Origin: Candidatus Omnitrophota bacterium
Lineage (GTDB): Bacteria > Omnitrophota > Gorgyraeia > Gorgyraeales > Gorgyraeaceae
Length of the DNA: 64,000 nucleotides
Reading direction: 5' to 3'
NCBI GenBank assembly: GCA_030649895.1
Contig: JAUSEX010000052.1
Span: forward strand, 16,988 to 80,987
Shown: positions 5,627 through 25,261 of the stretch, piece by piece
Position numbering within the stretch: position 1 is the stretch's first letter
Layout of the letters: every line of letters starts with the position of its first letter
The notes under the pieces: model-generated
Database searches by the model: none
What the model saw: only the letters and a program-made list of their open reading frames with translations
Told to the model about the DNA's origin: nothing
Program-made: the position numbers and the translations under genes

Positions 5627-6544
5627 TTACCGATAAAGAATTTTTTCAAGCTTCTCAACCGCTGCCTTCCGGAGAAACGCGCTCATTTGATTTAAGTTAT
5701 ACAACTTCCACTGAACCGCCGGAAGCTTACTTGCGTCATCTAAACCTAAAAGCCCCCAATCAGGATTGCCTTGTTTAAATGATATAAGAAATTTTTTATC
5801 ATCGTTAGTGAGATTTTCAAGCACCGTCCGAAATAATTTCTCGCGGGTTTCTATTAAGTCACTCAATTGCACCGGAATAGTGGGCATTTTCTCAAATTGC
5901 GTTTTAAAGACTTCTGTTAAATCCTTCCTATTCGGCATTAAAAGCTCTGAAATAGGCCGATTGCCACATATTAAATATACCAAAAAAGATTTTTTCAATG
6001 TCTTGGTAATGCCTTCATTCGCAAACAAAACCATAACATCAAAAAAATCTCGGGGATGCTGACGATCTAATGCCGCACATAATTTCCCGGCATACAGTTC
6101 ATCAAAAGACACAACTGGAACTTTTACATATCCAAAAAAATTTTCAACAATACGAGATATCTGCATTTTCGTTGGCGAATACAGCAAGCCCCGCGATACG
6201 GGAGATGCTTCTATTTTAATACTCTCCGAATCATGCCAGACAACTAATTTAGCTATATTCTCGTCATTATTTTTTTGTGCGCTCACAGAAGAACCAACAA
6301 TCGAATGTTTTATTTGAGCTGCCATCGATTGAAAGGCTTGCGTTATCTCGAATAGAGAAACAACCCGTTCCTTGATCGGGGTATACACAAGATCAATATC
6401 AACCGATAATCGCGGCATGTCCCGCACAAAAAGATTGATGGCTGTCCCACCTTTAAGCGCGAAACAATCACAAGCCGCGACATGAGGCAATACTCGCACC
6501 AATAATTGCACCCGTTTAAAATACGGGTTTATTGTATCAAACAT
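5627..6544 (-). CDS. Nucleotidyltransferase, AbiEii toxin family (type IV TA), number 2.
   Basis: CFALKGGTAINLFVRDMPRLSVDIDLVY motif. The start overlaps the upstream AbiEi gene by 8 nt. Confidence 0.8.
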   Translation of the reverse strand: MFDTINPYFKRVQLLVRVLPHVAACDCFALKGGTAINLFVRDMPRLSVDIDLVYTPIKERVVSLFEITQAFQSMAAQIKHSIVGSSVSAQKNNDENIAKLVVWHDSESIKIEASPVSRGLLYSPTKMQISRIVENFFGYVKVPVVSFDELYAGKLCAALDRQHPRDFFDVMVLFANEGITKTLKKSFLVYLICGNRPISELLMPNRKDLTEVFKTQFEKMPTIPVQLSDLIETREKLFRTVLENLTNDDKKFLISFKQGNPDWGLLGLDDASKLPAVQWKLYNLNQMSAFLRKAAVEKLEKILYR

Positions 6545-7313
6545 TAAATTTTTCCGGCACTGTTATTAAATAGGTCTTATTTAATTTGCCTTTATTCACA
6601 ATAAGCCTTTTCCCATTACCTAAATTAACGGCATCCTTGTCTATTGTCTCCAGCCAGGGATGCTTATAGTATTCTGCCAAAAATAAAAACAATCTCTTGA
6701 CTGCGACATGCCTACAAGCGCGCAGTAATTCATTAACTACATTCGGACGTAATGTGGTTAACCCTTCCATAAGCTCTGCGGCAAAGGTAAATGAAAATTC
6801 ATCTTTAACAAATACCAACGCTTCCATTATTGCCATTTCAGGCGATGAAATCTTTAATGGCCAGTCCTTTATAGGACTTTTTATTTCCATAAATCCCACG
6901 TTTTTGGGCACGCCTCTAAATAACTGTTTATGCACAACTCGTAAAGATACATTAAGAGTGACATTCCTAACCCACGAAGGGATTTTTGACAATCCCACAA
7001 GATATATCTGATTTTCTCCCGCTAATCTTAAATAATGAGAAAACCCCTGTAAATTAAGCGCTGTTTCTCCGCTAACATGATAAGCTACCCCCTCTATGTG
7101 TTGCCACGAAGCAACCAAGCCCTGCCAACTCACTTCTGTTGTCGGCCTGCTATACGCTCCTTTACCTACAGATTTAAGCCATCCACCTTTAACATAATTA
7201 TGAGTACGCTGTCTGGAGTATCCTTTATCCTGTAGCCATTTGCTTGGAGCTATGGCACCTTCAGGTAAACATAGATATAATTGGTTTATTTTTTCGTTGT
7301 TTTGTATATTCAT
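6537..7313 (-). CDS. AbiEi-family antitoxin / transcriptional regulator, number 2.
   Basis: N-terminal winged helix ...KWLQDKGYSRQRTHNYVKGGWLKSVGKGAYS (AbiEi_4 pattern L...G.L....RG.Y). Paired immediately upstream of AbiEii. Leaderless-like TATACT 7 nt before the ATG. Confidence 0.75.
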   Translation of the reverse strand: MNIQNNEKINQLYLCLPEGAIAPSKWLQDKGYSRQRTHNYVKGGWLKSVGKGAYSRPTTEVSWQGLVASWQHIEGVAYHVSGETALNLQGFSHYLRLAGENQIYLVGLSKIPSWVRNVTLNVSLRVVHKQLFRGVPKNVGFMEIKSPIKDWPLKISSPEMAIMEALVFVKDEFSFTFAAELMEGLTTLRPNVVNELLRACRHVAVKRLFLFLAEYYKHPWLETIDKDAVNLGNGKRLIVNKGKLNKTYLITVPEKFNV

Positions 7314-7432
7314 ACTTTACAGTATATCATATTTCTAAACTAAAAACAAGCTTATGGTTTAAATTTTATTATTCTTGTATATTGTGGGTTTACTTTTTAA
7401 TATTATTCTAAACATCGTCTCTGTATCTGCCA

Positions 7433-7557
7433 TATCTGTAATATACATCTTACCATCCGTAGCCAGCATTTTTAAACCGTTACATTTTGTAACGGTTTCA
7501 CTACCCTTTCGCTACTATATAAGACACATCTCAAAGGTGTTTTCTTTCAAAAATTTT
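7433..7557. repeat. Composite repeat unit, copy 1: 25-bp perfect palindrome AAACCGTTACATTTTGTAACGGTTT (7474-7498) followed by the conserved 40-nt motif (7518-7557).
   Basis: Near-identical to the unit at 15623-15748. The palindrome also occurs at 11284-11308 with compensatory changes (GTGAC...GTCAC). Confidence 0.8.
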
Positions 7558-7987
7558 AAAATATTTCATTCCTTAAAATCCCGACTACATACCCCACATT
7601 CCTTAATGGATTATCAGTGCGCATTTTGGAGACTTTTTCAACGGCTTTGCGCACATCATTTTCATTGTATTCTTTCATAATCCTTATGAAATTCTCAACC
7701 ACTTTTGGGCTATAGCCTTTATCTATCATGAAGCTAAGCTCTCTGGCCTTCGCGACTTCGTCCTTTCCATAACGCGCCTCTAATCCAAGCCATTTTTTCT
7801 CCATATCTTTTTCTGAATAAAGTATACCCAGAAGATACTCGCTTGGCTCTCTATCCTCATAACCAGCGCCTTTAGCTACTCTGGCTCTTTTTATCTCCAG
7901 AACACCGTATTTTTCAAGCTCTCTCATGCTAGGGGAAATAGTAGTATGATCCACATGAAAATCCTGCGCCAGTAAATTAAGGCTCAC
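7556..7987 (-). CDS. 'Family A' winged-helix / DnaD-like domain protein, copy 1. GTG start; the N-terminus is fused to a remnant of the PLD gene's 5' region.
   Basis: MRELEKYGVLEIKRARVAKGAGYEDREPSEYLLG (wHTH-like) ... IRIMKEYNENDVRKAVEKVSKMRTDNPLRNVGYVVGILRNE (DnaD-domain-like C-terminus). The open frame extends upstream into 7988-8100 without an ATG. Confidence 0.6.
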   Translation of the reverse strand: MSLNLLAQDFHVDHTTISPSMRELEKYGVLEIKRARVAKGAGYEDREPSEYLLGILYSEKDMEKKWLGLEARYGKDEVAKARELSFMIDKGYSPKVVENFIRIMKEYNENDVRKAVEKVSKMRTDNPLRNVGYVVGILRNEIF

Positions 7988-8160
7988 AGACCACCACGGG
8001 CTATCTTTACTAAGAGATTCTTTATAGACATTGATAAAATACGCGAACTTAGCGCTTTGGCTTAGTTTCCTTGACCAGTCATATTCCCAGTAGGCAAAAT
8101 GGAAGGATAAAAAGAAATTTTAGTGAAGAGTGTTTTCAACCTATAAACATCCTATGCTTA
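7988..8160. repeat. Recombination scar. The 5' leader/signal-peptide region of the PLD gene (AATGGAAGGATAAAAAGAAATTTTAGTGAAGAG...) is fused directly to the family A gene. The PLD body has been deleted in this copy.
   Basis: Sequence 8095-8160 matches 12640-12700/12770-12830 and 16670-16740, which flank PLD genes at the other two module copies. Confidence 0.6.
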
Positions 8161-8163
8161 TGA

Positions 8164-8925
8164 TTATCCATTGCCTATTCTTTTCAAGAGCTCATCCGAG
8201 AATTTCTGGATTTCTTCTCTGGTTACCGGCTCACGATAATACAATTCATCCATCTCGTCCCGGAATCTCTCCTGAGATATACGTAAATTTTCGACTATGC
8301 TTTTTTTGTCTAAAGGCCTGAACATTTCTTTCTTTGCCAGCAATGCCAAAGCGTCATCTATATTCAATCCCAATTTTTTCTGTAATATAACCAAATCATA
8401 CGGATCCCTGGGCCTTGCCCTATCGTTAAGCGTGCGTATTTTCTCGGCAAAAATCTCGCTTGTGTCCATAACCGGACAGGAAAGCTTAACCCCGTAATAA
8501 TTCTTGTATTCCATTACTTTTGGCTCAAGCAATACTTTTTGATTAGTGTTTATATCTACCTCGATTGTATCCGGCTGGGCTAATACACCGCGGTATTGCA
8601 CGGAAAACGCTAACCCGAATTTTTTCTCTTCTATATCCTTTAATTTAAATATTTCAAAATCTGAAAATAGACTCTCCACGTCGGATAGCTTTAATTTAGT
8701 CTTCGAAGTAAAATCCAGGTCTTTCGAGAAACGAATCTGGTCCAAATAGCAGTGATAGATGGCTGTCCCGCCTTTAAAGACAAGCGCGTCTTTTAATTCA
8801 GAACCGTAAATAATACTTAAGATTACCGCTAAGAAATAATCCTTTTCAGCATCCTGCAAATTATATTTAAGGCCGCGTTTATTTAAGACCTCTAATCGCG
8901 CCCTATCCAACAAATCTATCTTCAT
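8164..8925 (-). CDS. Nucleotidyltransferase, AbiEii toxin family, number 3.
   Basis: DALVFKGGTAIYHCYLDQIRFSKDLDFTSK motif. Overlaps the upstream AbiEi gene. Confidence 0.8.
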   Translation of the reverse strand: MKIDLLDRARLEVLNKRGLKYNLQDAEKDYFLAVILSIIYGSELKDALVFKGGTAIYHCYLDQIRFSKDLDFTSKTKLKLSDVESLFSDFEIFKLKDIEEKKFGLAFSVQYRGVLAQPDTIEVDINTNQKVLLEPKVMEYKNYYGVKLSCPVMDTSEIFAEKIRTLNDRARPRDPYDLVILQKKLGLNIDDALALLAKKEMFRPLDKKSIVENLRISQERFRDEMDELYYREPVTREEIQKFSDELLKRIGNG

Positions 8926-9676
8926 AATATAACCGCCATTTCGCGTTAAATTTCTTTGAATTAGGCGTAAGTTTACTATAACCTTTGGCTCCTACGGTCT
9001 TGCGCAATTCTTCAGTATCTATTTTTAATATATCTAAAATAAATCCTAATTTTCGTCTGGCCGCCTCAGGAAATTTCCGGGCATAGGTAAACAGCCTCCT
9101 AAAATTTATTCTGTCTTTTGCTTTTTGCAGTTTCTCCAGCAGTAAATCTATGGAATAAGTGTCATTTTTAAAATAGAGATAATCTAGAATCACTTTTTCA
9201 AGCTCCGCGACTTTTACGTAGTAGCCTTCTATGTTTTCAGTCTTAAAGCCAAAATACAGCTTTTTGTTTATCTTCAGATACCGATAGGTGTTTTTTTGAA
9301 ACACGTACTTCTTGGACTTAAGATTGGTTACCGATGATACAGTACGCAACATCTGTTCGAAAAGGCCATAATGATTTAAAGCTGAATCCAGCGAAACATA
9401 AGAATCTTTATTAAAGGCATTCGCTATAATAACAGGCGAAATATTCACAAAGCCGCGCGAGGAGATATCTGAGATAAAATAAAGCCCTCTCCTCAAAGGA
9501 ATGAGCCAGCCGTTTTTTTTGAGCTCATAGACCCGCTTCTTGAGGACAAATTTCGAGTATTTCCTGCCTAATGCCTTATGGATATCGTTGGCAGTTACGA
9601 TCTTACCCGAAGCAACAATAATATCTTCTATATCCACAAGTCGTTTTTCCGTTAAAATAGTATTCTTTGAAACCAC
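8903..9676 (-). CDS. AbiEi-family antitoxin / regulator, number 3 (GTG start).
   Basis: VYELKKNGWLIPLRRGLYFISD is an AbiEi_4 winged-helix signature. AAGGGGG RBS. sigma70-like TTGACA(9730-9735)-N17-TTTAAT(9707-9712) upstream. Confidence 0.7.
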   Translation of the reverse strand: MVSKNTILTEKRLVDIEDIIVASGKIVTANDIHKALGRKYSKFVLKKRVYELKKNGWLIPLRRGLYFISDISSRGFVNISPVIIANAFNKDSYVSLDSALNHYGLFEQMLRTVSSVTNLKSKKYVFQKNTYRYLKINKKLYFGFKTENIEGYYVKVAELEKVILDYLYFKNDTYSIDLLLEKLQKAKDRINFRRLFTYARKFPEAARRKLGFILDILKIDTEELRKTVGAKGYSKLTPNSKKFNAKWRLYYEDRFVG

Positions 9677-9706
9677 TTATACACCCCCTTTACGTATCTA
9701 TCTAGA

Positions 9707-9791
9707 ATTAAACCATACAAATATACTTTTGTCAAGTAGCTTTCTTGCATATATAAGACACATCTCAAAGGTGTTTTCTTTCAAAAATTTT
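9707..9791 (-). promoter_or_regulatory. Promoter of AbiEi#3 (TTGACA-N17-TTTAAT), with the conserved 40-nt motif (9753-9791) just upstream of the -35 element.
   Basis: Minus strand: ...TTGAAAGAAAACACCTTTGAGATGTGTCTTATATATGCAAGAAAGCTACTTGACAAAAGTATATTTGTATGGTTTAATTC... Confidence 0.6.
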
Positions 9792-9866
9792 AGTTAAATA
9801 TAACTAATTTATGTAACACCTTTATTTGTAATTAATTGCAACTACTACTTAAAAGTCAATAAGCAG

Positions 9867-10703
9867 CTAATTCAAGAGTTTTTTGCTTTGAGTCTCCTTT
9901 AGATAATTTTCATGCGTTAATACTTTTTTACCGCTCTTTCTTTCCAATTCTTTTCTCGCATTGCCTGCGACAGCGCCGCCCTCTTGGGCCGCTTGCTTAT
10001 TCTCGATAAATCCCTGAGCATTTTTATTTATGGTGATTTCTTTAGTGGATGCCTCTCCAAGCATTGAGAAGATTAATTCCAAGTCATTCATATGATCCCG
10101 CAGATTTTGCCGCTTTAACCCTTTAAACTTTTTATACGCGGATGGAGTCAGGCCAAAAATTGCTTTTGATATCTCAGCGGTTAGGATTTCATATTCTTTG
10201 GGTTTCTTTACGTCTCTTTTTTGCCACTGATCAGTTAGCTCTTCACGTATAGCTATGCCGCGTATTCTCTTTTCTATCCAATCATCACTATAGCCTTTTG
10301 CCTTATATAGTGCCCGCGTTCTCTTTGTCGCCAATTCAGGGTCTTCGATTTCCTTAATCCGCTCATAGCCGACTCTTGCCAGCCACCTCTTAAATGGTTC
10401 AGCTTTAGGCGAAGGGACAGATTGAATAATACGGAATATACCTTCGGTGTTGGCGCAATCTGTTTCATACTTTTTACCATCCAATGCTTCCAATTTCAGT
10501 CCGTGACAAAATGTCACGACCTCGCATCCTTCCGCTGTCAATCTTTGTTTGAGCTTTCTCCAATATGAACCTGCATCTAAGCTCTCGGTAAGAACACCGC
10601 ATACATCCACAACCGAAAACCACCATTCATTCTTGTGAATGGTTTTCCTGATCTCTTTTTTCCGAAAAATAGCAATTTTAGTAACAGCTGTCTCTTTTGT
10701 CAT
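9867..10703 (-). CDS. DinD-like DNA-damage-inducible protein with an N-terminal Bro-N/KilA-N-like domain, copy 1.
   Basis: The N-terminus IAIFRKKEIRKTIHKNEWWFSVVDVCGVLT resembles Bro-N. The C-terminal half (LTDQWQKRDV...YKKFKGLKRQNLRDHMNDLELIFSMLGEASTKEITINKNAQGF...GGAVAGNARKELE) aligns with E. coli DinD (KGLKKNQKILDHMGSTELAANLFRATQTEE...GRKVRQTIQELGG). Confidence 0.7.
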   Translation of the reverse strand: MTKETAVTKIAIFRKKEIRKTIHKNEWWFSVVDVCGVLTESLDAGSYWRKLKQRLTAEGCEVVTFCHGLKLEALDGKKYETDCANTEGIFRIIQSVPSPKAEPFKRWLARVGYERIKEIEDPELATKRTRALYKAKGYSDDWIEKRIRGIAIREELTDQWQKRDVKKPKEYEILTAEISKAIFGLTPSAYKKFKGLKRQNLRDHMNDLELIFSMLGEASTKEITINKNAQGFIENKQAAQEGGAVAGNARKELERKSGKKVLTHENYLKETQSKKLLN

Positions 10704-10747
10704 TTATCCCTCCAGATTTTTAATTACTATATATAAATCTACCCACT

Positions 10748-10847
10748 TCTAACTTAAAAGTCAATAGGCGCTATCCGAATGTGCCTATTGGGCATGCCTT
10801 AAAATCCCCACTAAATATTCAATATTTCTTAACAAAAGTCTCGTTCA
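10748..10847. repeat. Hairpin repeat CAATAGGCgctatccgaatgtGCCTATTG plus a 3' remnant of a family A gene (...TTAAAATCCCCACTAAATAT...).
   Basis: Same element as 5350-5410 (there carrying the nested mini-hairpin) and 25990-26035. The downstream ~40 nt match the last codons of the family A genes. Confidence 0.55.
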
Positions 10848-11485
10848 TTATCTTAGTAGTTTTTTATCATGGGGTAGCTTTATATAACTGTCTTTAGTTA
10901 TAACCTTTTTGCCTGTCTTCGACTCAATTTCTTTTCTCGCTTTCCCCGCAACATGCCCGCCCTGTCGTGCCACCTTTCGATTTTCCCTGAACGTCTTTGG
11001 TTCTTTTGCATTTGAAATTTCAGCAGTGCTGGCCTCCGCAAGCATATTCAAAACAAGCTCCAAATTCGTCATGTTATCGCGCAAATTTTCCTTTTTAAGT
11101 TCTTTAAACTTTTTATATTGCTTGGTCGTTAGGCCTGCCCAGGCAAATGTAATTTCATCAGTCAAAATAGCAAAGTCACCGGCCTCTTTAACGCCGCGCT
11201 TCTGCCATTCATCAGTTAAAGCCTTACGAAGCTCAATGCTTTTTCTGTAACACGCATCTTGCCATCCGCAGCCAGCATTTTCAAACCGTGACATTTTGTC
11301 ACGGTTTCACTGCCTTCTTTTTTAAGGCGTTCTTTTAGCTTTCTCCAATACGCAAGAGGAGATACGCTATCAGTAAGCACTGATATTATATCCGCTACTA
11401 CAAAAAACCATTTTTCTGTCTTTTCGTCCCAACTACGCCTGATTTTCTTACCTTCGAATAGAGCTATCTGAGATTTTTTCTCCAT
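10848..11485 (-). pseudogene. DinD-like gene, copy 2. It is disrupted: split into two ORFs (11216-11485 N-terminal part, 10848-11294 C-terminal part) by a repeat insertion together with a ~70-aa deletion.
   Basis: N-part MEKKSQIALFEGKKIRRSWDEKTEKWFFVVADIISVLT...TKCHGLKMLAADGK and C-part ...LTDEWQKRGVKEAGDFAILTDEI...YKKFKELKKENLRDNMTNLELVLNMLAEAST both align with DinD copies 1 and 3. The segment between them (CANTEGIFRIIQS...IEKRIRG) is missing and replaced by the palindromic element at 11250-11320. Confidence 0.7.
11250..11320. repeat. Inserted copy of the 25-bp palindrome element (AAACCGTGACATTTTGTCACGGTTT at 11284-11308) with flanking CATCTTGCCATCCGCAGCCAGCATTTTC. It disrupts DinD copy 2.
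   Basis: Matches 7440-7500 and 15640-15700, except for two compensatory substitutions that keep the palindrome perfect. Confidence 0.75.
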
Positions 11486-11596
11486 TTATCCCTCCAAATT
11501 TTCATTACAAAGATTTCTATATTAAACACTTTTATTATACCACGCTTTTCAATTCTTCTCTAAGAAACTGCATCATGCGCCACCTCCTCTCTACCC

Positions 11597-11637
11597 TATA
11601 AGACACATCTGGAGGTAGTTTTCTTTCAACTATTTTT
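11597..11637 (-). promoter_or_regulatory. Conserved 40-nt motif, copy e, upstream of the DinD#2 start.
   Basis: TATAAGACACATCTGGAGGTAGTTTTCTTTCAACTATTTTT. Confidence 0.55.
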
Positions 11638-11686
11638 ACTTTTTTGATTTTTTGTGAAAAAGGCAGGTAAAACCAGATTACAAATA

Positions 11687-12061
11687 TTAATCCCTTGCTT
11701 CTTTCCTTAAAATCCCCACTAAATATCCGATATTCCTTAAAGGATTATCCGGACGCATGGAGGAGACTTTTTTGACTGCATTAGCTACATTTTTCTCACC
11801 ATACTCTCGTATAATCCTTATAAGGTTTTCTACTGCTTTGGGATTATAGCCCCTATCTATCATGAAGCTAAACTCTCTTGCCTTGGCCGCTAAGTCTTTT
11901 CCATAACGCTCTTCCATGCCGCGCCATTTTTCCTCCATGTCTTTTTCTGAATAAAGTATACCCAAAAGATACTCGCTTGGCTCTCTATTCTCATAATCAG
12001 CGCCTTTAGCTATCCTAGTTCTTTTTATCTCCAGGACGCCGTATTTCTCAAGCTCTCTCAT
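11687..12061 (-). CDS. 'Family A' winged-helix / DnaD-like domain protein, copy 2 (124 aa).
   Basis: MRELEKYGVLEIKRTRIAKGADYENREPSEYLL...NPLRNIGYLVGILRKEARD. Paralog of 7556-7987 and 15722-16153. Confidence 0.6.
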   Translation of the reverse strand: MRELEKYGVLEIKRTRIAKGADYENREPSEYLLGILYSEKDMEEKWRGMEERYGKDLAAKAREFSFMIDRGYNPKAVENLIRIIREYGEKNVANAVKKVSSMRPDNPLRNIGYLVGILRKEARD

Positions 12062-12252
12062 GCCAGGGGAATTAAAGCCAATGATTTATCCTTTAAGAAC
12101 CTGGCAGGGCATTTGATCATTACAATCTGCGCTTCATCTATAGATCTCTTATCCACAAAAGGCCGTAACTTAAGAATATTCTTTAATTTTTCCTTAGCAT
12201 ACTCTCTGGATATTATTAAATCCGCATTCTCGCTATTTAACCTGAATGCTGA

Positions 12253-12687
12253 CTATGACCAGTTAGAGCTTCCTGATATTACAATATTTTTATCAATGAC
12301 TATTAATTTATCATGAAGCCTTTTACCAGGCATAATAAATTTAACCGGCACGCCCTCTCTATAAAGCGCTAAAAAGGCAGAATCGTTCTTATCTTCATTA
12401 TAGGGTTTACTCCTATCTAAATAGACCTCTACTTTTACACCTCTAGTATGCGCGTTTACTATATCCTGAACCAGCTTATACGCTTCGCTTTCTGTCTTAT
12501 CCAACTCCATGGATATCTCATACATCGCTATATAAAGAGAGTCCTTTGATTTGGAAAGCGCTTCGTGGGCGGCCTGGAAATATTTATCATCGCTTATGTC
12601 TTTAATATCTACCTGAATCGCGAAACTTTTGATTGGAAATAATAAAAATGGAAGGATGAAAATGAAGCCCACCCAGGTTAAAGCCAT
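12253..12687 (-). pseudogene. Secreted PLD-superfamily (Nuc-like, HKD) nuclease, truncated by a nonsense codon immediately after the HKD motif.
   Basis: Signal peptide MALTWVGFIFILPFLLFPIKSFA|IQ; HKD motif HDKLIVIDKNIVISGSSNWS. The TAG directly after NWS corresponds to TAT (Tyr) in the paralog at 16150-16566, whose frame continues ...YSAFRLNSENADLII... for 60 more codons. Confidence 0.6.
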
Positions 12688-12824
12688 GGGTTCTTGTGGG
12701 CGGAATACTGAGCGGCCTGAACATATTCGCACCCTAAAGGGCGTGGTTTTAGGCCGCGAATGTAGAAATTTTAGGGAAGAGTATTTCAATCTATAAACAT
12801 CCTATCAGGCCTATCCGGCACCCC

Positions 12825-13985
12825 TTATAACACATTGCCTGCCCATAGTTCAGACAAAAAATCTCTCCAAGGTATAATCTGTATTTTACCGCTAACCCTT
12901 TTTTCCTTTTCATTACACACAAGCACAGCTTTTTTTGGAGAATATTCCTCAATAAATGCCTTCAATGATTTCAAATCCCTGCCATCAATCCTGCTCGAAC
13001 CTTTTACTTCTATAGCCACTTCTCCCTTTCCAAGCACAAAATCCACCTCCAGCCCTGATTTGGTCCTCCAAAAATTAATATCAAAATCCGACTCGCTGTA
13101 AGAACGGTAGGCGTTTATCTCCATAAGGATTAAATGTTCGAATGCCTTGCCAAACTCTTCTCCCTTAATATCCTCTAAATGCCGCTTAGTCAATATCCCG
13201 CTGACTCCGACATCGAACAAATAATATTTCGGAGCGCTTATAATAACATTACGGCTTTGCCTTCTTTTAAAAGGCTCCAGCCTTATCGCCAATAACGTAT
13301 CCACCAGTATCTGATAATACTCCCTTACGGTCTTCGCGTTTACCCCGCAGTCCCTGGCAATATTTGAATAATTCGTCAACTCTCCGTGCGAATATCCAAT
13401 AGCGTCAAAAAACCTGGAAAACGCCGGAATATTGCGGACGAGCCCTTCGTTGAAGACCTCTTCCTTTAAATAATCCTGAACATATGCTATTAAAGATTTT
13501 CTGTAATTTTTATCATCCAGATAATGCGAAGGCACCATTCCATGGTTTAATGCTCTCAAGAGGTCTACATTCTTAAGCTCAGCGCTTACGAACGGAAAAA
13601 GCTGGTAACGCCATGCCCTGCCCCCCAGTAAATTAGCATGGCCTCTCTTTAACTTCCTGGCGCTCGAACCGCATAATATAAAACTTAAGCCCTTATTTTC
13701 TATCAGCCAGTGAATCTCATCTAGGATTTGAGGAATTTTTTGAACCTCATCTAATATTATAGGCTTAGTTAGACTTTTTTCTTCTTTCGCGAGCAGTCTT
13801 TCGCGGAATAAGGAAGGATTTTTGGATAGCTCAAAAAATAGATCAGTCTTCAGAAAATCATAATATAGACTGTCAGGAAAATGCTCCTTGAGATAGCTGG
13901 TTTTTCCGGTCTTTCTGGGCCCCCATAAAAACGCGGATTGGCCTTTGGGCAGTTTTATTTTTAAAAGCCTTTTTATGTTTTCCAT
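12825..13985 (-). CDS. AAA+ ATPase (AAA_14-like) with a C-terminal DUF4143 / PD-(D/E)xK-like domain, copy 1.
   Basis: Walker A GPRKTGKTS; Walker B ILDEVQ; CGSSARKL; C-terminal ...EVDFVL...IEVK (D..E.K nuclease-like). Confidence 0.8.
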   Translation of the reverse strand: MENIKRLLKIKLPKGQSAFLWGPRKTGKTSYLKEHFPDSLYYDFLKTDLFFELSKNPSLFRERLLAKEEKSLTKPIILDEVQKIPQILDEIHWLIENKGLSFILCGSSARKLKRGHANLLGGRAWRYQLFPFVSAELKNVDLLRALNHGMVPSHYLDDKNYRKSLIAYVQDYLKEEVFNEGLVRNIPAFSRFFDAIGYSHGELTNYSNIARDCGVNAKTVREYYQILVDTLLAIRLEPFKRRQSRNVIISAPKYYLFDVGVSGILTKRHLEDIKGEEFGKAFEHLILMEINAYRSYSESDFDINFWRTKSGLEVDFVLGKGEVAIEVKGSSRIDGRDLKSLKAFIEEYSPKKAVLVCNEKEKRVSGKIQIIPWRDFLSELWAGNVL

Positions 13986-13996
13986 ATAGAACCTTA

Positions 13997-14050
13997 CTCC
14001 TAATTAGTTCGACTAGTTAGGAGTATATCACACAAACTATAAGCTGTCAA
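13997..14050 (-). promoter_or_regulatory. Promoter of AAA#1: TTGACA(14045-14050)-N17-TATACT(14022-14027), followed by an imperfect palindrome CTCCTAATTAGT-tcg-ACTAGTTAGGAG (13997-14023) that overlaps the RBS.
   Basis: Minus strand: cTTGACAgcttatagtttgtgtgaTATACTcctaactagtcgaactaattaggagtaaggttctatATG. Confidence 0.65.
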
Positions 14051-14082
14051 GCGCCTCCTGATTTTTCACATGATCAAAACTC

Positions 14083-15351
14083 TCATCCCAACAACCACTT
14101 ATAAATAGGCTTAACCATTATAACCTTCCCTTCTAACGCAATCTCTTCCTCGGTATCTTCAGTCAAAATAAGCGCAGTTTTCAACTTAAGTTCATCCATG
14201 GCTTTTATCAGCGCATTGAGCTCTCTCGATCTCGTTTTTTCGTTATCTAAATTATCCGCAACCTGAATAAGCAATAGATCATTTTTGCCAGACTTGACCA
14301 AGAAATCAACTTCCAGATTATTTGTGGTCTTATAATAATAAATCTCTTGGAACTTGCGCCTAAGCTCAAGGAATACCAAGTTTTCTAAAAACTTTCCCTT
14401 ATTCTTGGAAAATTGGAATGCGACCGCTTCTGCCAAACCATTGTCGATACAGTAAATCTTCTTAAAGGAGACAAACTGCTGTTTGAGAGAATAAGAAAAC
14501 CTGCTGATGAGGAATATCAAGTAGCTGTTTTCCAAGAAATCCGCGTAGCTCTTGATGGTATTCATGCTGCCTACTCCAAGAACTTTTTTCAGATTATTAT
14601 AAGAGAATGTCCCTCCGAGATTACTCAAAAGATACAGCCCAAGCTCCCTCAATGGTTTAACCTGCTTGATACCATATCTTGCCACGATGTCCCGGTAAAG
14701 AATGTCTTCATATACCCGCTTCAAAAGGGTTGTATCTTGATACTTCAAATACTCGGGCATGCCTCCATGCTTGAGATATTCAGCAAAATGCTTCTTGATA
14801 GCAGCTCTAACTGAGGTCAAAGACAGGCTGTCCTTGGATAACTGGAAACCCTTGAAAGAGAGAAATTCCATAAAAGAGAACGGGAACAATTCAATGTTAA
14901 CGTTTCTGCCTGTCAGTTTCGCGCCAAGCTCCTTGCTAAGCAATGAGGCATTCGAACCTGTGATAAAAAATTTGCATCCCTTACCTTGCATCCGACGCAC
15001 AAACACTTCCCATTGGGGAACGTTCTGAACCTCATCGAAAAAGAAAACCTTTTTATCTCCATACAACTCCAGAAACACCTCGTAAAGATGATTGAAATCC
15101 TCAACATTGAAGTCCACAAGGCGTTCATCTTCAAAATTAAGATAATAAACACCTTTCTTGTAAAGATTACTGATAATCTGATTGAGCAATGTAGACTTGC
15201 CAGAACGGCGCACTCCTGAAACAACTACCGCATGGGGTAAAGTTGCATGCCGTGAAGCAACACTCAATGCTGCCCTTGGAATACCAATATCTATATCCTG
15301 ACGATCTTTTTCTTGTTCAAGAACGATTTCTTTTAATAATGACTTATGCAT
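14083..15351 (-). CDS. AAA+ ATPase (AAA_14-like) with a C-terminal DUF4143 / PD-(D/E)xK-like domain, copy 2.
   Basis: Walker A GVRRSGKST; Walker B FFDEVQ; ITGSNASLL; C-terminal ...EVDFLV...IQV. Confidence 0.8.
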   Translation of the reverse strand: MHKSLLKEIVLEQEKDRQDIDIGIPRAALSVASRHATLPHAVVVSGVRRSGKSTLLNQIISNLYKKGVYYLNFEDERLVDFNVEDFNHLYEVFLELYGDKKVFFFDEVQNVPQWEVFVRRMQGKGCKFFITGSNASLLSKELGAKLTGRNVNIELFPFSFMEFLSFKGFQLSKDSLSLTSVRAAIKKHFAEYLKHGGMPEYLKYQDTTLLKRVYEDILYRDIVARYGIKQVKPLRELGLYLLSNLGGTFSYNNLKKVLGVGSMNTIKSYADFLENSYLIFLISRFSYSLKQQFVSFKKIYCIDNGLAEAVAFQFSKNKGKFLENLVFLELRRKFQEIYYYKTTNNLEVDFLVKSGKNDLLLIQVADNLDNEKTRSRELNALIKAMDELKLKTALILTEDTEEEIALEGKVIMVKPIYKWLLG

Positions 15352-15366
15352 CCTGTCTCCTTATGT

Positions 15367-15416
15367 TCTCACTGTTAATGAGAGTATATCATATATAGTT
15401 CTCATTGTCAATGAGA
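15367..15416 (-). promoter_or_regulatory. Promoter of AAA#2: TTGACA(15406-15411)-N17-TATACT(15383-15388), flanked by two 17-bp palindromic operators TCTCATTGTCAATGAGA (15400-15416, containing the -35) and TCTCACTGTTAATGAGA (15367-15383, at the transcription start).
   Basis: Minus strand: tctcaTTGACAatgagaactatatatgaTATACTctcattaacagtgagaacatAAGGAGAcaggATG. Confidence 0.7.
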
Positions 15417-15622
15417 ATAAGGATCTAAGTTCTTCAAAAATTCTGCAGCCTCTCTCATGAAATCCTCTATTAAGACCTACTGTATTGCTTTCAGCAATTC
15501 CAGATCGTTTAACATCCGATTCAGGCATCTGCACAGAAAGGGTGGTGGCAATTTGCCTCCACCCTTTAGCCAACTACGAATCCCTTTCTATATTATCACT
15601 CAATTCTCTATTAACAATAGCC

Positions 15623-15748
15623 ATATCTGTAATATGCATCTTGCCATCCGCAGCCAGCATTTTCAAACCGTTACATTTTGTAACGGTTTCACTACCCTCT
15701 CGCTACTATATAAGACACATCTCAAAGGTGTTTTCTTTCAAAAATTTT
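15623..15748. repeat. Composite repeat unit, copy 2: 25-bp palindrome (15665-15689) plus the conserved 40-nt motif (15709-15748).
   Basis: About 95% identical to 7433-7557. Confidence 0.8.
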
Positions 15749-16153
15749 AAAAATAAATAAACCGCGCAGGTGATTCATTAGTCTTTTGCTTCTTTCTTCA
15801 AAATCCCCACTAAATATCCGGATATTCCTTAAAGGATTATCCGGACGCATGGAGGAGACTTTTTCAACGGCTTTGCGCACGTCATTTTCATTGTATTCTT
15901 TCATAATCCTTATGAAATTCTCAACCACCTTTGGGCTATAGCCTTTGTCTATCATAAAGCTGAATTCCCGGGCTTTGGCTACCGTGTCCTTACCGTAAAG
16001 CTTTTCCATGCCAAGCCATTTTTTCTCCATATCTTTTTCTGAATAAAGTATACCCAGAAGATACTCGCTTGGCTCTCTATTCTCATGACCAACGCCTTTG
16101 GCTATCCTAGCTCTTTTTATCTCCAGGACGCCATATTTTTCAAGCTCTCTCAT
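15722..16153 (-). CDS. 'Family A' winged-helix / DnaD-like protein, copy 3. The C-terminus is altered by a +1 frameshift (extra G in ATCCGGATATT), so it reads through into the repeat unit.
   Basis: Identical to the other copies up to RPDNPLRNI, then diverges (RIFSGDFEERSKRL...) instead of GYLVGILRKE. The DNA still encodes the ancestral ending in the -1 frame. Confidence 0.55.
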   Translation of the reverse strand: MRELEKYGVLEIKRARIAKGVGHENREPSEYLLGILYSEKDMEKKWLGMEKLYGKDTVAKAREFSFMIDKGYSPKVVENFIRIMKEYNENDVRKAVEKVSSMRPDNPLRNIRIFSGDFEERSKRLMNHLRGLFIFKIFERKHL

Positions 16154-16566
16154 GCCAGGGAAATTGGAGCCAATGATTTATCCTTTAAGAACCTGGCAGG
16201 GCATTTTATCGTTACAATCTGCGCTTCATCTATAGATCTCTTATCCACAAAAGGCCTAAGCCTTAGGATATTCTTTAATTTTTCCTTGGCATACTCTCTG
16301 GATATTATTAAATCAGCATTCTCGCTATTTAACCTGAATGCTGAATATGACCAGTTAGAGCTTCCTGATATTACAATAAATTTAACCGGCACGCCCTCTC
16401 TATAAAGCGCTAAAAAAGCTGAATCGTTCTTATCTTCATTATAGGGTTTACTCCTATCCAAATAGACCTCTATATTTACGCCTCTAGTATGCGCATCTAT
16501 TATATCCTGAACCAGCTTATACGCTTCGCTTTCAGTTTTATCCAGCTCCATAGATATCTCATACAT
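16150..16566 (-). pseudogene. PLD/Nuc-like nuclease paralog lacking the ATG and signal-peptide start region and carrying a 48-nt in-frame deletion that removes the catalytic HKD His-Lys segment.
   Basis: ...VKFIVISGSSNWSYSAFRLNSENADLIISREYAKEKL... The segment MPGKRLHDKLIVIDKN present at 12290-12337 is absent; the deletion is flanked by an ACAATA direct repeat. The upstream frame has no ATG and hits TAG. Confidence 0.6.
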
Positions 16567-16723: not shown

Positions 16724-18667
16724 TCAATCTATAAATTCCCTATGCCAGAGTTCCAGAAATAGAAGGCTCCAAATTCTGGCACCGTTGTTGGCTTTGCAGG
16801 CCATATGATCATCCAGAAGTTTCTTTACGGTCTCTTTTTTAAAATAACTTCTCTTTATGGCTTTATCGCTCATGAGGATATCATGCGAATAACCTTTTAG
16901 TTCATTGCGGAACCAAGAGTCTAAAGGCACGCCAAAACCCATTTTGCTTCTGGAAAGTATTTCTTTGGGCAATGCCTTGGATAATGCTTTCTTTAATATA
17001 TATTTTAATTTTGTGCCTTTTATTTTCATGCTACTCGGCATGCTGGCGCAGAATTCCATCATTTTATGGTCTAGAAACGGCGAACGGCCTTCCAAGGAAT
17101 TGGCCATTGTAGCAATATCCATTTTTACAAGCAGATCATCCAATAGATTAGTTTTTATATCAGCGCACATTACCTTATCCACCACATCTTCAGAGCCGCA
17201 TTCATTAAACGCTTTATCTAAATAATTAAATGAATTCCTGCCGGATATTTCTTTATTAAATTCATCAGTAAACAGGTTATTCTTTTCGTGATCATTAAAT
17301 ATAGCCGTCCAATTATAATGTCTTTCCCTGTATGGTTTAGGCAATTCCACCAGAAATCTTCTAATCCTAGCTTTAGAATCCTTAACCCCGAGAGATTCAG
17401 GTATCTTCCCTGTAATCAATTTTATAATCTTTTCCTTAAATGGAGCTGGTATTTTATTGATTAATTCCGCGTATCTCGTGGCCATAAACCTCTCGTATCC
17501 TCCAAAACACTCATCTCCCCCATCTCCATTTAGAGCCACTGTGACTTCCTGTCTGGTCATTTTAGCTACATAATAACTCGGAAGCGCTGAAGAATCAGCG
17601 TATGGTTCATTGTAATGCCATACAAGTTTTGGCAAAAGATCTATAGCGTCTGGTTTAACAATATATTCATGATGTTCTGTTTTAAACCGTTCAGCGATAA
17701 TTTTAGCGTATTTTAATTCGCTATACTCTTTATTATCAAAACCTATGGAAAATGTTTTTACAGGCTTTGAACTTAGTTTACTCATCATATATACTACAGC
17801 ACTCGAATCTATACCCCCGCTTAAAAACGCTCCGAGCGGAACATCGCTTATAAGCCGTATCTTTGTGCACTCCTCCAGCATATCCATTGTCCTGTCGCAA
17901 TATTCTTTCTCGGATAATTTTAGTTTCTTAGAAAAATCAAGCTTCCAGTATTTTTCTAATCTTATATTGCCTTTTTCATAGATCATAAAATGAGCAGGCG
18001 GAAGTTTCATAATGCCTTTAAACATAGTTTCAGGCGTAGGCGTATATCCGTAACTTAGGTAATCTGTAATGGCAGGCCTGTTGACCTCTTTAGAAATATC
18101 GGGATCTTGAAGAATGGCCTTGATCTCAGAAGCAAAGGTCAATGTTTGGTTCTTATATGTATAATAAAGCGGCTTTTTACCTATCCTATCCCGCGCCATA
18201 AAAAGCCTTTCTTTTTTATTGTCCCATATAGCAAAAGCAAAAGGCCCTCTTAAATCCTTAAGGCACTCCACGCCTTTTTCTTCATACAGATGTAAAATTA
18301 CCTCTGTATCAGTATGCGACTTAAAAATATGGCCTTTTTTTACAAGCTCGTCTTTTAATTCTATAAAATTATAAATTTCACCGTTCAGAACTATCCAAAT
18401 AGACCCATCTTCGTTACTCATTGGCTGATGGCCTGCGGGCGATAAATCAATAATAGCGAGCCTCCTATGCCCCAAACCAACGTTAGCAATATTGTTCGAG
18501 CGAGGCAAAATATACTTCTCGACTTCGCTCGAAGAATATTTTGCCGAGTCGAGAACCTTTATCCCCTCATTATCCGGCCCTCTATGCGTAAGAACCCCGC
18601 ACATCTTTCTGATGAGCTCTTCCGTCACATTCCCATTCGCACTAATTTTCCCGCATATCCCGCACAT
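16724..18667 (-). CDS. asnB: Asparagine synthetase B-like glutamine amidotransferase, copy 1, carrying an in-frame palindromic-element insertion near the N-terminus.
   Basis: N-terminal MCGICG... (Cys2 Ntn-hydrolase nucleophile), LGHRRLAIIDL, and a synthetase domain SGGIDSS. An extra ~24-aa segment DSAKYSSSEVEKYILPRSNNIAN lies between HRGPDNEG and LGHRR relative to the paralog at 46419-48314, and is encoded by 18488-18557. Confidence 0.9.
   Translation of the reverse strand: MCGICGKISANGNVTEELIRKMCGVLTHRGPDNEGIKVLDSAKYSSSEVEKYILPRSNNIANVGLGHRRLAIIDLSPAGHQPMSNEDGSIWIVLNGEIYNFIELKDELVKKGHIFKSHTDTEVILHLYEEKGVECLKDLRGPFAFAIWDNKKERLFMARDRIGKKPLYYTYKNQTLTFASEIKAILQDPDISKEVNRPAITDYLSYGYTPTPETMFKGIMKLPPAHFMIYEKGNIRLEKYWKLDFSKKLKLSEKEYCDRTMDMLEECTKIRLISDVPLGAFLSGGIDSSAVVYMMSKLSSKPVKTFSIGFDNKEYSELKYAKIIAERFKTEHHEYIVKPDAIDLLPKLVWHYNEPYADSSALPSYYVAKMTRQEVTVALNGDGGDECFGGYERFMATRYAELINKIPAPFKEKIIKLITGKIPESLGVKDSKARIRRFLVELPKPYRERHYNWTAIFNDHEKNNLFTDEFNKEISGRNSFNYLDKAFNECGSEDVVDKVMCADIKTNLLDDLLVKMDIATMANSLEGRSPFLDHKMMEFCASMPSSMKIKGTKLKYILKKALSKALPKEILSRSKMGFGVPLDSWFRNELKGYSHDILMSDKAIKRSYFKKETVKKLLDDHMACKANNGARIWSLLFLELWHREFID
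18488..18557. repeat. Nested palindromic element, copy F (permuted compact form), in frame inside asnB.
   Basis: AATATT GTTCGAGCG(18494-18502) aggcaaaatat A CTTCTCGAC(18515-18523) ttc GCTCGAAGAATATTTTGCC gag TCGAGAACC. Confidence 0.8.
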
Positions 18668-18750
18668 ACTATAATTACTCCTTATTCCGCATAAACGTTT
18701 TTATGGAATTTTAATTGCCGTCGTAGAGATATAATATTTAATGTCGATCA

Positions 18751-19890: not shown

Positions 19891-20078
19891 AATTAAAGCA
19901 TATCATAAAGTTTAACTATAAGCAATACTAAACTTCTATAGTTATGCCAATATTACTCAGCCTCCTATGCCCCAGGCCCATATCTCCTTTTACATACACT
20001 CCCTTTATTTACAACATTATATCAGTACTATTTTATATTCCTAGTATCTTTTTGAACTTAGAAGTTGCATTTCTTTCC

Positions 20079-20221
20079 GATAGTGTGTCCAGCTTAATTC
20101 GTGACGCAGCGCGTCACGATTCGAATACATCACATAGAAATGCCTTATATTTTAGAACCATAAGGCTCGTAACTTATTATAAGGTAAAATGTTACAGCTC
20201 AGTAAGACGTCCCCGATGCTA
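20079..20221. repeat. 143-bp repeat, copy 1 (orphan). It is a duplicated 5' region, N-terminal coding segment plus promoter-like leader, of the YhcG-like nuclease gene.
   Basis: About 93% identical to 25119-25261. Its reverse complement encodes MMYSNRDALRHELSWTHY..., the N-terminus of the gene at 24445-25173. Contains the imperfect palindrome TCGTGACGCagcGCGTCACGA. Confidence 0.75.
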
Positions 20222-23486: not shown

Positions 23487-23518
23487 GCAGTAGCCCAGGT
23501 TTAAACCTGGGCTACTGC
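23487..23518 (-). terminator. Rho-independent terminator hairpin immediately 3' of DinD#3 (GCAGTAGCCCAGG-tttaaa-CCTGGGCTACTGC followed by TTTTAAG on the minus strand).
   Basis: 13-bp perfect stem, 6-nt loop, U-tract. A variant with covarying stem is at 24410-24441. Confidence 0.65.
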
Positions 23519-24351
23519 TAATTCAAGAGTTTCTTGCTTTGAGCTTCTTTTAGATAATTTTCACGCGTTAATACTTTTTTACCACTCTTTCTTTCCAATT
23601 CTTTTCTCGCGTTGCCCGCGACAGCGCCGCCCTTTTGGGCTGCTTGCTTAGTCTCGATAAATCCCTGAGCATTTTTATTTATGGTGATTTCTTTAGTGGA
23701 TGCCTCTCCAAGCATTGAGAAGATCAGCTCCAAGTCATTCATATGATCCCGCAGATTTTGCCGCTTTAACCCTTTAAACTTTTTATACGCGGATGGGGTC
23801 AGGCCAAAAGTTGCTTTTGATATCTCAGCGGTGAGTATTTCGTATTCTTTGGGTTTCTTTACGTCTCTTTTTTGCCACTCGTCAGTTAGTTCTTCACGGA
23901 TAGCTATGCCGCGTAGTCTCTTTTCTATCCAGGCATCGCTATATCCTTTAGCCTTATATAAAGCTCTCGTTCTCTTTGTAGCTAGTTCAGGGTCTTCGAT
24001 TTCCTTAATCCGCTCATAGCCGATTCTTGCCAGCCACCTCTTAAATGGTTCAGCTTTAGGTGATGAGACTGACTGGATAATGCGAAAAATACCTTCTGTA
24101 TTTGCACAGTTCATCTTCTGTCTCCCACCTTCTGTGCGAATTTCAAGGGTATGTACAATTTGTACCCACCCTTTAGCCAACTCTGGATCCCTTTGTTTCA
24201 TTCTCTGGATATACTGCTTAGGATCACTGGAATCAATCAAAGCCGAGACAACGTCTTCAATAACAAACCACCACTCCTTCTTATGAATGGCTTTCCTGAT
24301 CTCTTTCTTCCGAAAAATAGCAATTTTAGTAACAACTGTCTCTTTTGTCAT
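23518..24351 (-). CDS. DinD-like / Bro-N domain protein, copy 3.
   Basis: About 85% identical to copy 1 over the N- and C-terminal parts, with a divergent middle segment (SSDPKQYIQRMKQRDPELAKGWVQIVHTLEIRTEGGRQKMN). Confidence 0.7.
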   Translation of the reverse strand: MTKETVVTKIAIFRKKEIRKAIHKKEWWFVIEDVVSALIDSSDPKQYIQRMKQRDPELAKGWVQIVHTLEIRTEGGRQKMNCANTEGIFRIIQSVSSPKAEPFKRWLARIGYERIKEIEDPELATKRTRALYKAKGYSDAWIEKRLRGIAIREELTDEWQKRDVKKPKEYEILTAEISKATFGLTPSAYKKFKGLKRQNLRDHMNDLELIFSMLGEASTKEITINKNAQGFIETKQAAQKGGAVAGNARKELERKSGKKVLTRENYLKEAQSKKLLN

Positions 24352-24409
24352 TTATCCCTCCAGATTTTTAATTACCATATATAAATCTACCCGCTTTTAA
24401 CTTATAAAA

Positions 24410-24444: not shown

Positions 24445-25173
24445 TTAAAATTTATACCGTTGCATTTCTTTCCGAAGCTCCTCTGGGGTAGGAAGATACA
24501 GTTTGTACCGCGAGGCGAATATCTGCTTATTGCGCTCAGGCAATGTATATCGTACTACAGCGTCTTTTTTATCCTCGCATAATAAAAGCCCTACGGTAGG
24601 ATTATCATCATGGCGCCTCAATATCCGATCATAGTAATTAACGTACATCTGCATCTGCCCTATATCCTGATGAGTAATTTTTCCTATTTTTAAATCAATA
24701 AGAACGTAACACTTCAGAATCGCATTATAGAAAACCAGATCTATGTAAAAATGATCTCCCTCTAGCGTTATGCGGTTTTGGCGCGCGACAAACGTAAATC
24801 CTCTGCCAAGTTCCAGGAGAAATTGAGACAGATGGTCAATAAGCGCCTGCTCAAGTTTATTTTCATAAAGTTTAGCCTGAGGAGATAGTCCGGTAAATTC
24901 TAGCACATATGGATCCTTTATCATATCTTCATATGTCTGAACATCCTGGCCTTTGGCGGCAAGCCGTTTCACAGCTTTCTTATCTTTGCTTAACGCAAGT
25001 CTCTCGAACAACATGCTGCCTTTCTGGCGTTCAAGCTCGCGGGATGACCAATTATTCTTCGCGCATTCTACTTCATAAAATGAACGGGCTTCCGGATTTT
25101 CTACCCGTATTAATATCCTATAGTGCGTCCAGCTTAATTCGTGACGCAGCGCGTCACGATTCGAATACATCAC
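24445..25173 (-). CDS. PDDEXK-family nuclease, YhcG/DUF1016-like, N-terminally short relative to canonical family members.
   Basis: LSWTHYRILIRVENPEARSFYEVECAKNNWSSRELERQ matches the YhcG signature (LSWSHY..L....D...R.FY......W..REL.RQ). The C-terminal region GDHFYIDLVFYNAILKCYVLIDLKIGK is consistent with a PD-(D/E)xK core. The first ~18 codons lie inside repeat 25119-25261. Confidence 0.65.
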   Translation of the reverse strand: MMYSNRDALRHELSWTHYRILIRVENPEARSFYEVECAKNNWSSRELERQKGSMLFERLALSKDKKAVKRLAAKGQDVQTYEDMIKDPYVLEFTGLSPQAKLYENKLEQALIDHLSQFLLELGRGFTFVARQNRITLEGDHFYIDLVFYNAILKCYVLIDLKIGKITHQDIGQMQMYVNYYDRILRRHDDNPTVGLLLCEDKKDAVVRYTLPERNKQIFASRYKLYLPTPEELRKEMQRYKF

Positions 25174-25261
25174 ATAGAAATATCTTATATTTTGGAACCA
25201 TAAAGCTCGTAACTTATTATATGGTAAAATGTTACAGTGCAGTAAGACGTCCCCGATGCTA
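25119..25261. repeat. 143-bp repeat, copy 2, forming the 5' end and leader of the YhcG-like gene.
   Basis: Paralogous to 20079-20221. Minus strand contains TTACTG-N18-TATAAT, a promoter-like sequence, upstream of ATGATGTAT. Confidence 0.75.

Follow-up and report, generated by a model that had tools for sequence, protein, structure and literature searches.

A modular palindromic repeat lies in frame at a variable loop of an asparagine synthase-like gene of Candidatus Omnitrophota

The stretch of DNA analyzed here (64,000 nt of the 164,166-bp contig JAUSEX010000052.1, assembly GCA_030649895.1; hereafter, the window) comes from a metagenome-assembled genome (MAG) of Candidatus Omnitrophota and encodes two asparagine synthase-like enzymes, AsnB#1 and AsnB#2. 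As had been proposed in an initial annotation, AsnB#1 carries an in-frame palindromic element; it spans 69 nt at 18488–18556 and recurs elsewhere in the window. We interpret this insert as a copy of a small, non-autonomous, selfish family of palindromic repeats of Omnitrophota, similar in behavior to the Rickettsia palindromic elements (RPEs), that resides at a permissive loop of the protein, and assign to this reading a probability of about 0.72. The genes in question and the insert are:

16724–18667, minus strand: host gene AsnB#1 (MDO8603516.1, 647 aa), located in a polysaccharide gene cluster and encoding a glutamine-hydrolysing, asparagine-synthase-like amidotransferase.
46419–48314, minus strand: paralogue AsnB#2, the comparator, 631 aa (MDO8603543.1), with the near-empty loop NEGIYLSGSKVKAGL.
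18488–18556, minus strand: the insert, 69 nt or 23 codons in frame, encoding VLDSAKYSSSEVEKYILPRSNNI.

Positions 18488–18557 read AATATTGTTCGAGCGAGGCAAAATATACTTCTCGACTTCGCTCGAAGAATATTTTGCCGAGTCGAGAACC, and the open reading frame (ORF) of AsnB#1 is translated through the insert as ...HRGPDNEGIKVLDSAKYSSSEVEKYILPRSNNIANVGLGHRRL.... The two paralogues are 47% identical (BLASTP), with every gap in the N-terminal region located at the insert and amounting to 18 residues net. The DNA alignment places the gap at the same position, and the indel between the paralogues thus persists at both levels. The AsnB#1 loop comprises 33 residues compared with 12 in orthologues with an empty site, an excess of 21. 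The initial estimate of about 24 extra residues is therefore close to the 23 codons supplied by the element, but exceeds the net difference from either comparator. A 64-nt string of the insert occurs only once in the window (0 expected in shuffles), and its 16-nt core has an exact second occurrence at 2130. More broadly, 26 nt of the insert are identical to 2128–2153, and 73 nt are 85% identical to 1803–1873. The insert holds three interleaved inverted-repeat pairs.

AsnB#1 has the features of a class II (N-terminal nucleophile, Ntn) amidotransferase: it starts with MCGICG, keeps Cys2 as well as the PP-loop LSGGIDSS, and matches structures 1CT9 and 7YLZ. Its homologues contain the GATase_7 and Asn_synthase domains, and NCBI names it asparagine synthase; the polysaccharide-cluster context suggests sugar amidation as the predicted activity. 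An AlphaFold2 model of AsnB#1 (predicted local distance difference test score 89, predicted template-modelling score 0.89) shows low confidence only at residues 41–60, which lie between strands 33–40 and 62–69 and correspond to the tip of a β-hairpin. Alignment to E. coli AsnB (1CT9) puts the insert at the turn around residues 41–43, just upstream of the conserved H-x-R-L strand. The earlier placement of the insert in a loop of the glutaminase domain is borne out by this model, in which the insertion position is a surface loop compatible with the fold; the enzyme probably still works, with the insert as a tolerated passenger.

To place the insert among related enzymes, we used the best 120 homologues of AsnB#1 (54–85% identical, Ca. 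Omnitrophota wherever named), 110 of which are full-length and were analyzed; they are located in syntenic polysaccharide clusters. The homology search with the sequence of AsnB#1 itself missed MDO8603516.1, the 90% cluster of which (P0241/P0242) is represented by a 134-aa fragment, a pitfall for searches aimed at close relatives. Across the 110 sequences, the HRGPD...GLGH loop varies from 12 to 42 residues, and no other internal region differs in length by three or more residues. Extra sequence is present in 75 homologues and belongs to at least six repeat classes:

Empty loop: 35 of 110.
This element: 15 of 110.
GGGTGAA-type heptamer repeat: 8 of 110.
PSPxPSP: 5 of 110.
RFRGND: 2 of 110.
LAMT: 2 of 110.
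Other: 42 of 110.
Unclassified: 1 of 110.

The extra loop sequence in related genomes consists of the modules of this element or of other recognisable repeats, with no conserved native segment. The other occupants include a GC-rich hairpin and heptamer or octamer tandem repeats. In the DNA of four orthologues in other states, the loop is filled by a GC-rich hairpin, by (GGGTGAA)x4 (L116:10097–10150, also a G3N4 G-quadruplex-type run), by (AAACTCC)x3 (L117:10097–10153), and by a hairpin followed by two copies of AGGTCACA. The two empty loops examined (L119 and AsnB#2 of the window) are unstructured. A tree built with the loop masked requires at least 45 state changes, and for 56 of the 110 sequences the nearest neighbor is in a different loop state. 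The eight closest relatives of AsnB#1 represent four states. Some orthologues whose loop has 12 residues are 88% identical outside it, which speaks for a gain of sequence and against an ancestral segment. The AsnB loop is a hot spot throughout the AsnB family, and the repeat families that use it are several and unrelated to one another.

Delineation of the repeat unit drew on 265 units from the window and 113 fetched loci (114 sources in total); it has the form (G/C)TTCTCGAC-T-(variable segment of 2–45 nt, usually a stable hairpin)-CGCTCGAA(G/C)-AATATT. The variable segment takes three forms: a 27-nt sequence, of which two conserved versions exist, a short stable hairpin that often has a TTCG loop, or next to nothing (2 nt). 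The modules are free of stop codons in all six frames. Units occur as convergent pairs (bAaB, 53), divergent pairs (aBbA, 20) and single units (52), and complete pairs show a defined polarity, CTTCTCGAC...GTCGAGAAC. The nested order a-b-a'-b' was found twice among the sources, both times in the window. In 19 long copies, the terminal inverted repeats TTCTCGACT / AGTCGAGAA are invariant and are followed by GCT/AGC. On the minus strand, the AsnB copy reads GTTCTCGAC...CGCTCGAAC AATATT and forms one gene-sense unit, with an inverted compact unit held within its variable hairpin. The left junction, encoding VLD, is common to all element-carrying AsnB orthologues. In plus-strand coordinates, the parts of the AsnB copy are:

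18488–18503, plus strand: module a with the AATATT tail, AATATTGTTCGAGCGA, pairing with module a'.
18504–18513, plus strand: left arm of the variable hairpin, GGCAAAATAT, pairing with 18536–18545, ATATTTTGCC.
18515–18523, plus strand: module b of the nested compact unit, CTTCTCGAC, pairing with module b'.
18526–18540, plus strand: module a' and its AATATT tail, both belonging to the nested compact unit, CGCTCGAAGAATATT, encoding YSSS on the minus strand.
18548–18556, plus strand: module b', GTCGAGAAC, read on the minus strand as GTTCTCGAC, VLD.

Mapping of the four short modules revealed six four-module copies in the window; the five copies beyond that in AsnB#1 lie at 359–2185, and three of them are in frame in a single glycosyltransferase gene:

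952–2262, minus strand: GT4 glycosyltransferase, 436 aa (MDO8603497.1), with three in-frame copies.
2128–2185, plus strand: compact convergent pair (b a' a b') at GT4 site 1, encoding (F)SIRPSASLEQYSSSEVEK.
1804–1870, plus strand: nested copy (a b a' b') at GT4 site 2, 85% identical to the AsnB copy, encoding RFSTWPNILRACREDIRPRSNSI.
1395–1503, plus strand: long convergent pair with 27-nt arms at GT4 site 3, encoding VLDCACNLKQHVRSNDIGSKYSSSGHESISCAQSRE.
853–952, plus strand: long copy abutting the 3' end of the GT4 gene, its final base being the G of the TAG stop codon.
359–484, plus strand: long intergenic copy with 27-nt arms and a 36-nt central loop.

Orthologues of the GT4 protein at 74–75% identity are 372–374 aa long, lack all three inserts and have clean empty sites, and the C-terminus of the GT4 protein of the window, whose stop codon takes its last base from copy 853–952, is 4–5 residues shorter than theirs. 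NCBI annotates AsnB#1, AsnB#2 and GT4 as intact proteins. The two long copies at 359–484 and 853–952 bracket an ORF at 487–819 (minus strand, 110 aa) that is coiled-coil-like and has no Pfam match. Among 119 GT4 homologues, six or more extra residues are found at site 1 in 38, at site 2 in 64 and at site 3 in about 20, and the occupants include this element as well as several other repeat families. The three GT4 sites therefore behave like the AsnB loop, and the hot-spot pattern is general rather than a property of AsnB. The peptide KYSSSEVEK had been reported as shared between AsnB#1 and GT4; the GT4 copy in fact encodes QYSSSEVEK, and the common peptide is YSSSEVEK. The accompanying suggestion that the element is inserted in a reused orientation and frame does not describe the family either: of 262 units, 61 (23%) are located within open frames of 150 codons or more, where all six orientation and frame combinations are used, and most units (77%) lie outside genes. 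Even the AsnB copy's nearest relative, at 1804–1870, has part of its length translated in a different frame.

A 23-base pattern, scanned against 185,579 species-representative genomes, yielded at least 111 matching stretches, most of those listed being in Ca. Omnitrophota MAGs, plus one single-cell genome. Amplification of particular variants inside single genomes, a hallmark of a replicating repeat, is seen for example with the 23-nt hairpin CCGTCCCGATACTTCGGGACTC, which many JAHIUV01 contigs carry. Exact module matches were also found in bins labelled Doudnabacteria, Moraniibacteriota, Uhrbacteria, Saccharibacteria and Levybacteria (labels as given, the candidate phyla radiation, CPR, being among them), as well as in bins labelled Gammaproteobacteria, Actinomycetota and Planctomycetia; the cross-phylum loci include L004, L036, L037, L041, L053, L056, L077, L081 and L098–L100. 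Some of these labels look doubtful; for example, the 'Lysobacterales' locus with the element in LeuRS has a GC content of 39%. Mis-binned Omnitrophota contigs are unsupported as the source of the cross-phylum matches, which, with labels as given, span 30–64% GC compared with 37–49% for the Omnitrophota loci.

Host genes confirmed by Pfam are MurE, GatB, LeuRS, AroA, a radical-SAM enzyme and the GT4 gene of the window. In MurE, two MAGs carry the element at the same site (L062:2853–2933 and L107:5807–5871) with a different arrangement, different variable hairpins and different reading frames, a case that parallels the situation in AsnB. The AroA (EPSP synthase) ORF of L073 (PEUD01000085.1) contains four in-frame inserts, namely two pairs of the element and two copies of another repeat, which encodes LTLPSP(L/H)RGEGKGEG. 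Its presence in AroA implies that the PSPxRGEG class, seen also in five AsnB loops, is a mobile repeat inserted in frame in its own right.

The behavior of the family resembles most closely that of the RPEs, palindromic repeats inserted in frame in many Rickettsia genes (PMC10969869; Ogata et al. 2000, 2002 summarised there). Both consist of short dispersed palindromes, many copies of which lie in frame within metabolic and housekeeping genes that are unrelated to one another; at positions that the fold can accommodate, they encode a conserved peptide, and neither is known to have its own transposase. The elements described here differ in size (56–129 nt, with compact units of about 26 nt, as opposed to about 100–150 bp in RPEs) and in construction, being modular units with a swappable hairpin that occur singly, in both inverted-pair arrangements and nested. 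They are also read in all six frames rather than in one conserved ORF, and a few loops are shared by several repeat families unrelated to one another. The host, Ca. Omnitrophota, belongs to another phylum, and the likeness is one of behavior, a relationship in sequence not being expected; we therefore regard the family as a functional analogue of RPEs rather than a member. Like RPEs, the present family, in Omnitrophota and CPR, occurs in bacterial lineages with small genomes and a dependence on hosts. No repeats of this kind in Omnitrophota or Patescibacteria were found described in the literature searched. The family fits the known kind of in-frame palindromic repeats.

There are also likenesses to repetitive extragenic palindromic (REP) sequences and REP doublets forming hairpins (REPINs), which are likewise short, imperfect palindromes found both singly and as inverted pairs, show genome-specific amplification, lie mostly outside genes and produce no target-site duplication. 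REPs are defined (PMC3733652) by a GTAG/CGTC stem head and by mobilisation by REP-associated tyrosine transposases (RAYTs). Some of the nested hairpins described here start with CGTC, but this motif occurs only inside hairpins; the units begin with GTTC or CTTC, their ends being (G/C)TTCTCGAC and CGCTCGAA(G/C)AATATT. Moreover, two conserved modules flank a variable hairpin in place of a single stem-loop, and a quarter of the units lie in long open frames. The third group compared comprises miniature transposable elements with inverted repeats (MITEs) and palindromes such as enterobacterial repetitive intergenic consensus (ERIC) sequences, BOX, Correia and Coxiella QMITE (PMC10969869, PMC5896051). 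The long form of the element is similar: it is an imperfect palindrome of about 96–129 bp with terminal inverted repeats, shows internal indel variants and occasional in-frame copies within genes, and does not itself encode a product. In contrast to these palindromes, the interiors of the two 27-nt arms are separate conserved sequences, only about half of which is complementary, half-elements occur commonly, as do divergent pairs, and no matching autonomous insertion sequence turned up in the loci sampled. A classical MITE is ruled out by the absent target-site duplication and the unclean junctions.

Other identities were considered and rejected. Neither module variant occurs in 2.9 million viral contigs, which argues against a phage vehicle. 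An integron attC-like site was suggested by the cassette-like surroundings and paired modules, but the ends do not fit RYYYAAC / GTTRRRY. A hammerhead-like CTGATGAG at 18609, without an Rfam match, was judged to be there by chance in conserved coding sequence. No tRNA or transfer-messenger RNA was found in the window by ARAGORN. As for a structured RNA, RNAalifold run on the 19 long copies yielded two invariant stems only, with a covariation term of –0.07.

Several observations weigh against the interpretation of the insert as a selfish, mobile passenger. Flanking sequences provide no sign of a target-site duplication: 2-nt flanks match in 8 of 55 elements, 3-nt flanks in 2 of 55 and 4-nt flanks in none of 55. 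Comparison of filled and empty sites shows replacement of a few native codons and a short T-rich tail, not a clean insertion or duplication. No transposase-like family recurs among the 820 ORFs clustered from about 650 kb of element-bearing loci (sampled loci only), where housekeeping families alone recur. Identical modules are found in bins with differing phylum labels and a GC content from 30 to 64%, which drift alone hardly explains. Finally, the conservation of the AsnB insert is much higher than expected for a neutral passenger. The closest relative is a Joint Genome Institute (JGI) fragment that is about 90% identical, stems from an independent assembly and has the same nested insert; 65 of 69 nt of the insert are identical, compared with 82% of the flanks overall and 65% of their third codon positions. 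Between the window and L001, L002 and L003, 27–29 of 29 module nucleotides are identical compared with 44–60% of 4-fold sites, and the window and L002 do not differ over the first 42 nt of the insert. All 15 element-bearing orthologues, including those down to 60% protein identity, agree in junction, orientation and phase. This conservation could be caused by concerted evolution with other copies, by repeated replacement at the site or by selection on the modules, the first of which we favor.

A rival explanation is that the modules are recognition sites of RAYT- or recombinase-like machinery or of a host protein, with site-specific insertion or templated conversion and selection at the DNA level. 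The conservation of the insert relative to the flanking coding DNA, the near-invariance of the modules next to saturated 4-fold sites, the shared junctions and the spread across labelled phyla all favor this explanation, as does one compensatory pair in the a':a stem, which accounts for two of the four differences between the insert and that of its closest relative. However, the CACTC/GAGTG variant exists elsewhere (L086), and the compensation may therefore reflect copying from a variant rather than selection. Family-wide, there is no excess of compensatory change: 111 convergent pairs contain 77 one-sided mismatches and 26 G-T pairs as opposed to 3 compensated changes, a number reached in 69 of 500 shuffles. 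Most diverged copies simply break the stem pairing, as in the decay of ordinary copies. A candidate enzyme does not recur near the copies sampled, and no RAYT-type family recurred in the sampled loci, whole genomes not having been searched. That unrelated repeats share the AsnB and GT4 loops points to tolerance of the sites, not to targeting. As to targeting by microhomology, native GGTTTCTCTGA at GT4 site 1 and GTTC at GT4 site 3 resemble the element end, whereas the AsnB site does so only slightly, and we consider this a weak lead. On balance, recognition-site machinery appears unlikely to be the explanation of the AsnB insert. Somewhat more doubtful still is the wider proposal that the modules serve a REPIN-RAYT- or recombinase-like system inserting or maintaining hairpins at loop codons across Omnitrophota and CPR. 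If true, the AsnB tip and the three GT4 sites would be landing pads, the turnover of which might diversify surface-polysaccharide enzymes.

It is also conceivable that a hairpin or an unstable repeat located about 110–180 nt into the coding region modulates expression, for example by ribosome pausing or RNase cleavage, or switches an enzyme that modifies a surface polysaccharide on and off or between variants. The extra sequence in 75 of 110 homologues and the location of the gene in a polysaccharide cluster agree with such a role, and several of the hairpins are strong, with predicted folding energies of –27 kcal/mol for the insert of the window, –36 for L002 and –27 for L115. In L116 and L117, the 7-nt unit is not a multiple of three, so that slippage would shift the frame, as in classical phase-variable surface genes. 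Yet the inserts of these same two loci are unstructured (–0.6 and –4.7 kcal/mol, respectively), the tandem repeats comprise only 3–4 copies, and the z-score of the AsnB fold is only –2.9. Of the 110 homologues, 35, close relatives included, are empty. The in-frame presence of the element in MurE, LeuRS, GatB and AroA, where switching would be harmful, argues in the same direction, and we consider a regulatory function very unlikely.

That the insert is removed before function, by intron-like RNA or protein splicing, or is an assembly artefact, for which the pseudoknot-like a-b-a'-b' pairing and the absence of the element from the paralogue could be cited, deserves hardly any credence: Rfam 15 gave no match at the gathering threshold in the whole window nor at E<=1 in 300–2300 and 18400–18680, 23 residues are far below intein size, a DNA repeat accounts well for the copy number, the variety of architectures and the use of all six frames, inserts that are identical or related sit at this codon in independent assemblies of other samples (L001, L002, L003 and L120), and NCBI annotates the 647-aa product as intact.

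Returning to the selfish-repeat interpretation, the recurrent occupation of the GT4 sites favors a simple model in which a flux of repeats is filtered by selection. These genomes would be exposed to a strong flux of small repeats, both hairpins and tandem arrays, and purifying selection would spare only in-frame, stop-free copies at a few tolerant loops, the AsnB loop being the only such site in the AsnB family. The insert would be transcribed and translated with the gene, adding a predicted disordered excursion of about 21 residues at the β-hairpin tip of the N-terminal glutaminase domain, near residues 41–43 of E. coli AsnB. After its gain, a copy would be inherited vertically over a short range, in line with the nested insert shared with the JGI relative, and its variable part would be rapidly remodelled. 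The modules would stay near consensus, most likely because other copies in the genome serve as templates for copying or conversion, or because the copy is replaced at its site.

The surroundings of AsnB#1 contain further repeated sequences. In the syntenic loci L116 and L119, AsnB is followed directly by peptidase C1, whereas in the window about 12.7 kb (4053–16566) separate peptidase C1 (3240–4040) from AsnB#1. The interposed DNA encodes three AbiEii/AbiEi type IV toxin-antitoxin pairs, one Bro-N protein and two AAA_14/DUF4143 ATPases. It is built from repeated modules of about 4.1 kb, with 300-nt repeats at 7595, 11729 and 15821 and 92% identity between 12334 and 16375, and looks like a cassette-like accessory or defence island within the polysaccharide cluster. 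A second, unrelated intergenic repeat, TATATAAGACACATCT..GGTGTTTTCTTTCAAAAATTTT, of about 54–62 nt is present in seven copies at cassette boundaries (808, 3178, 7516, 9750, 11595, 15707 and 21707); the cassettes may have in it a common minus-strand promoter or junction sequence. The Bro-N gene is duplicated (9866–10759 and 23517–24407, 93–95% identity), as is a 153-nt segment (20069–20221 and 25109–25261, 92% identity).

The colonisation of genes in frame by palindromic repeats has been regarded as an unusual trait of Rickettsia. The same phenomenon is now seen in Omnitrophota and, apparently, in CPR, with a new modular family and at least three others. Four loops in two neighboring genes behave alike, and their dynamics can be measured from public data. 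The occupied sites provide a natural map of protein loops that tolerate 10–30 extra residues. For annotation and phylogenetics, they carry a warning, as peptides such as YSSSEVEK, RSNNI, RFRGND and PSPxPRGEG can mimic similarity between unrelated MAG proteins. The family also offers a tractable case of repeat movement without a visible transposase and of an intragenic copy that stays nearer to its consensus than neutral evolution allows.

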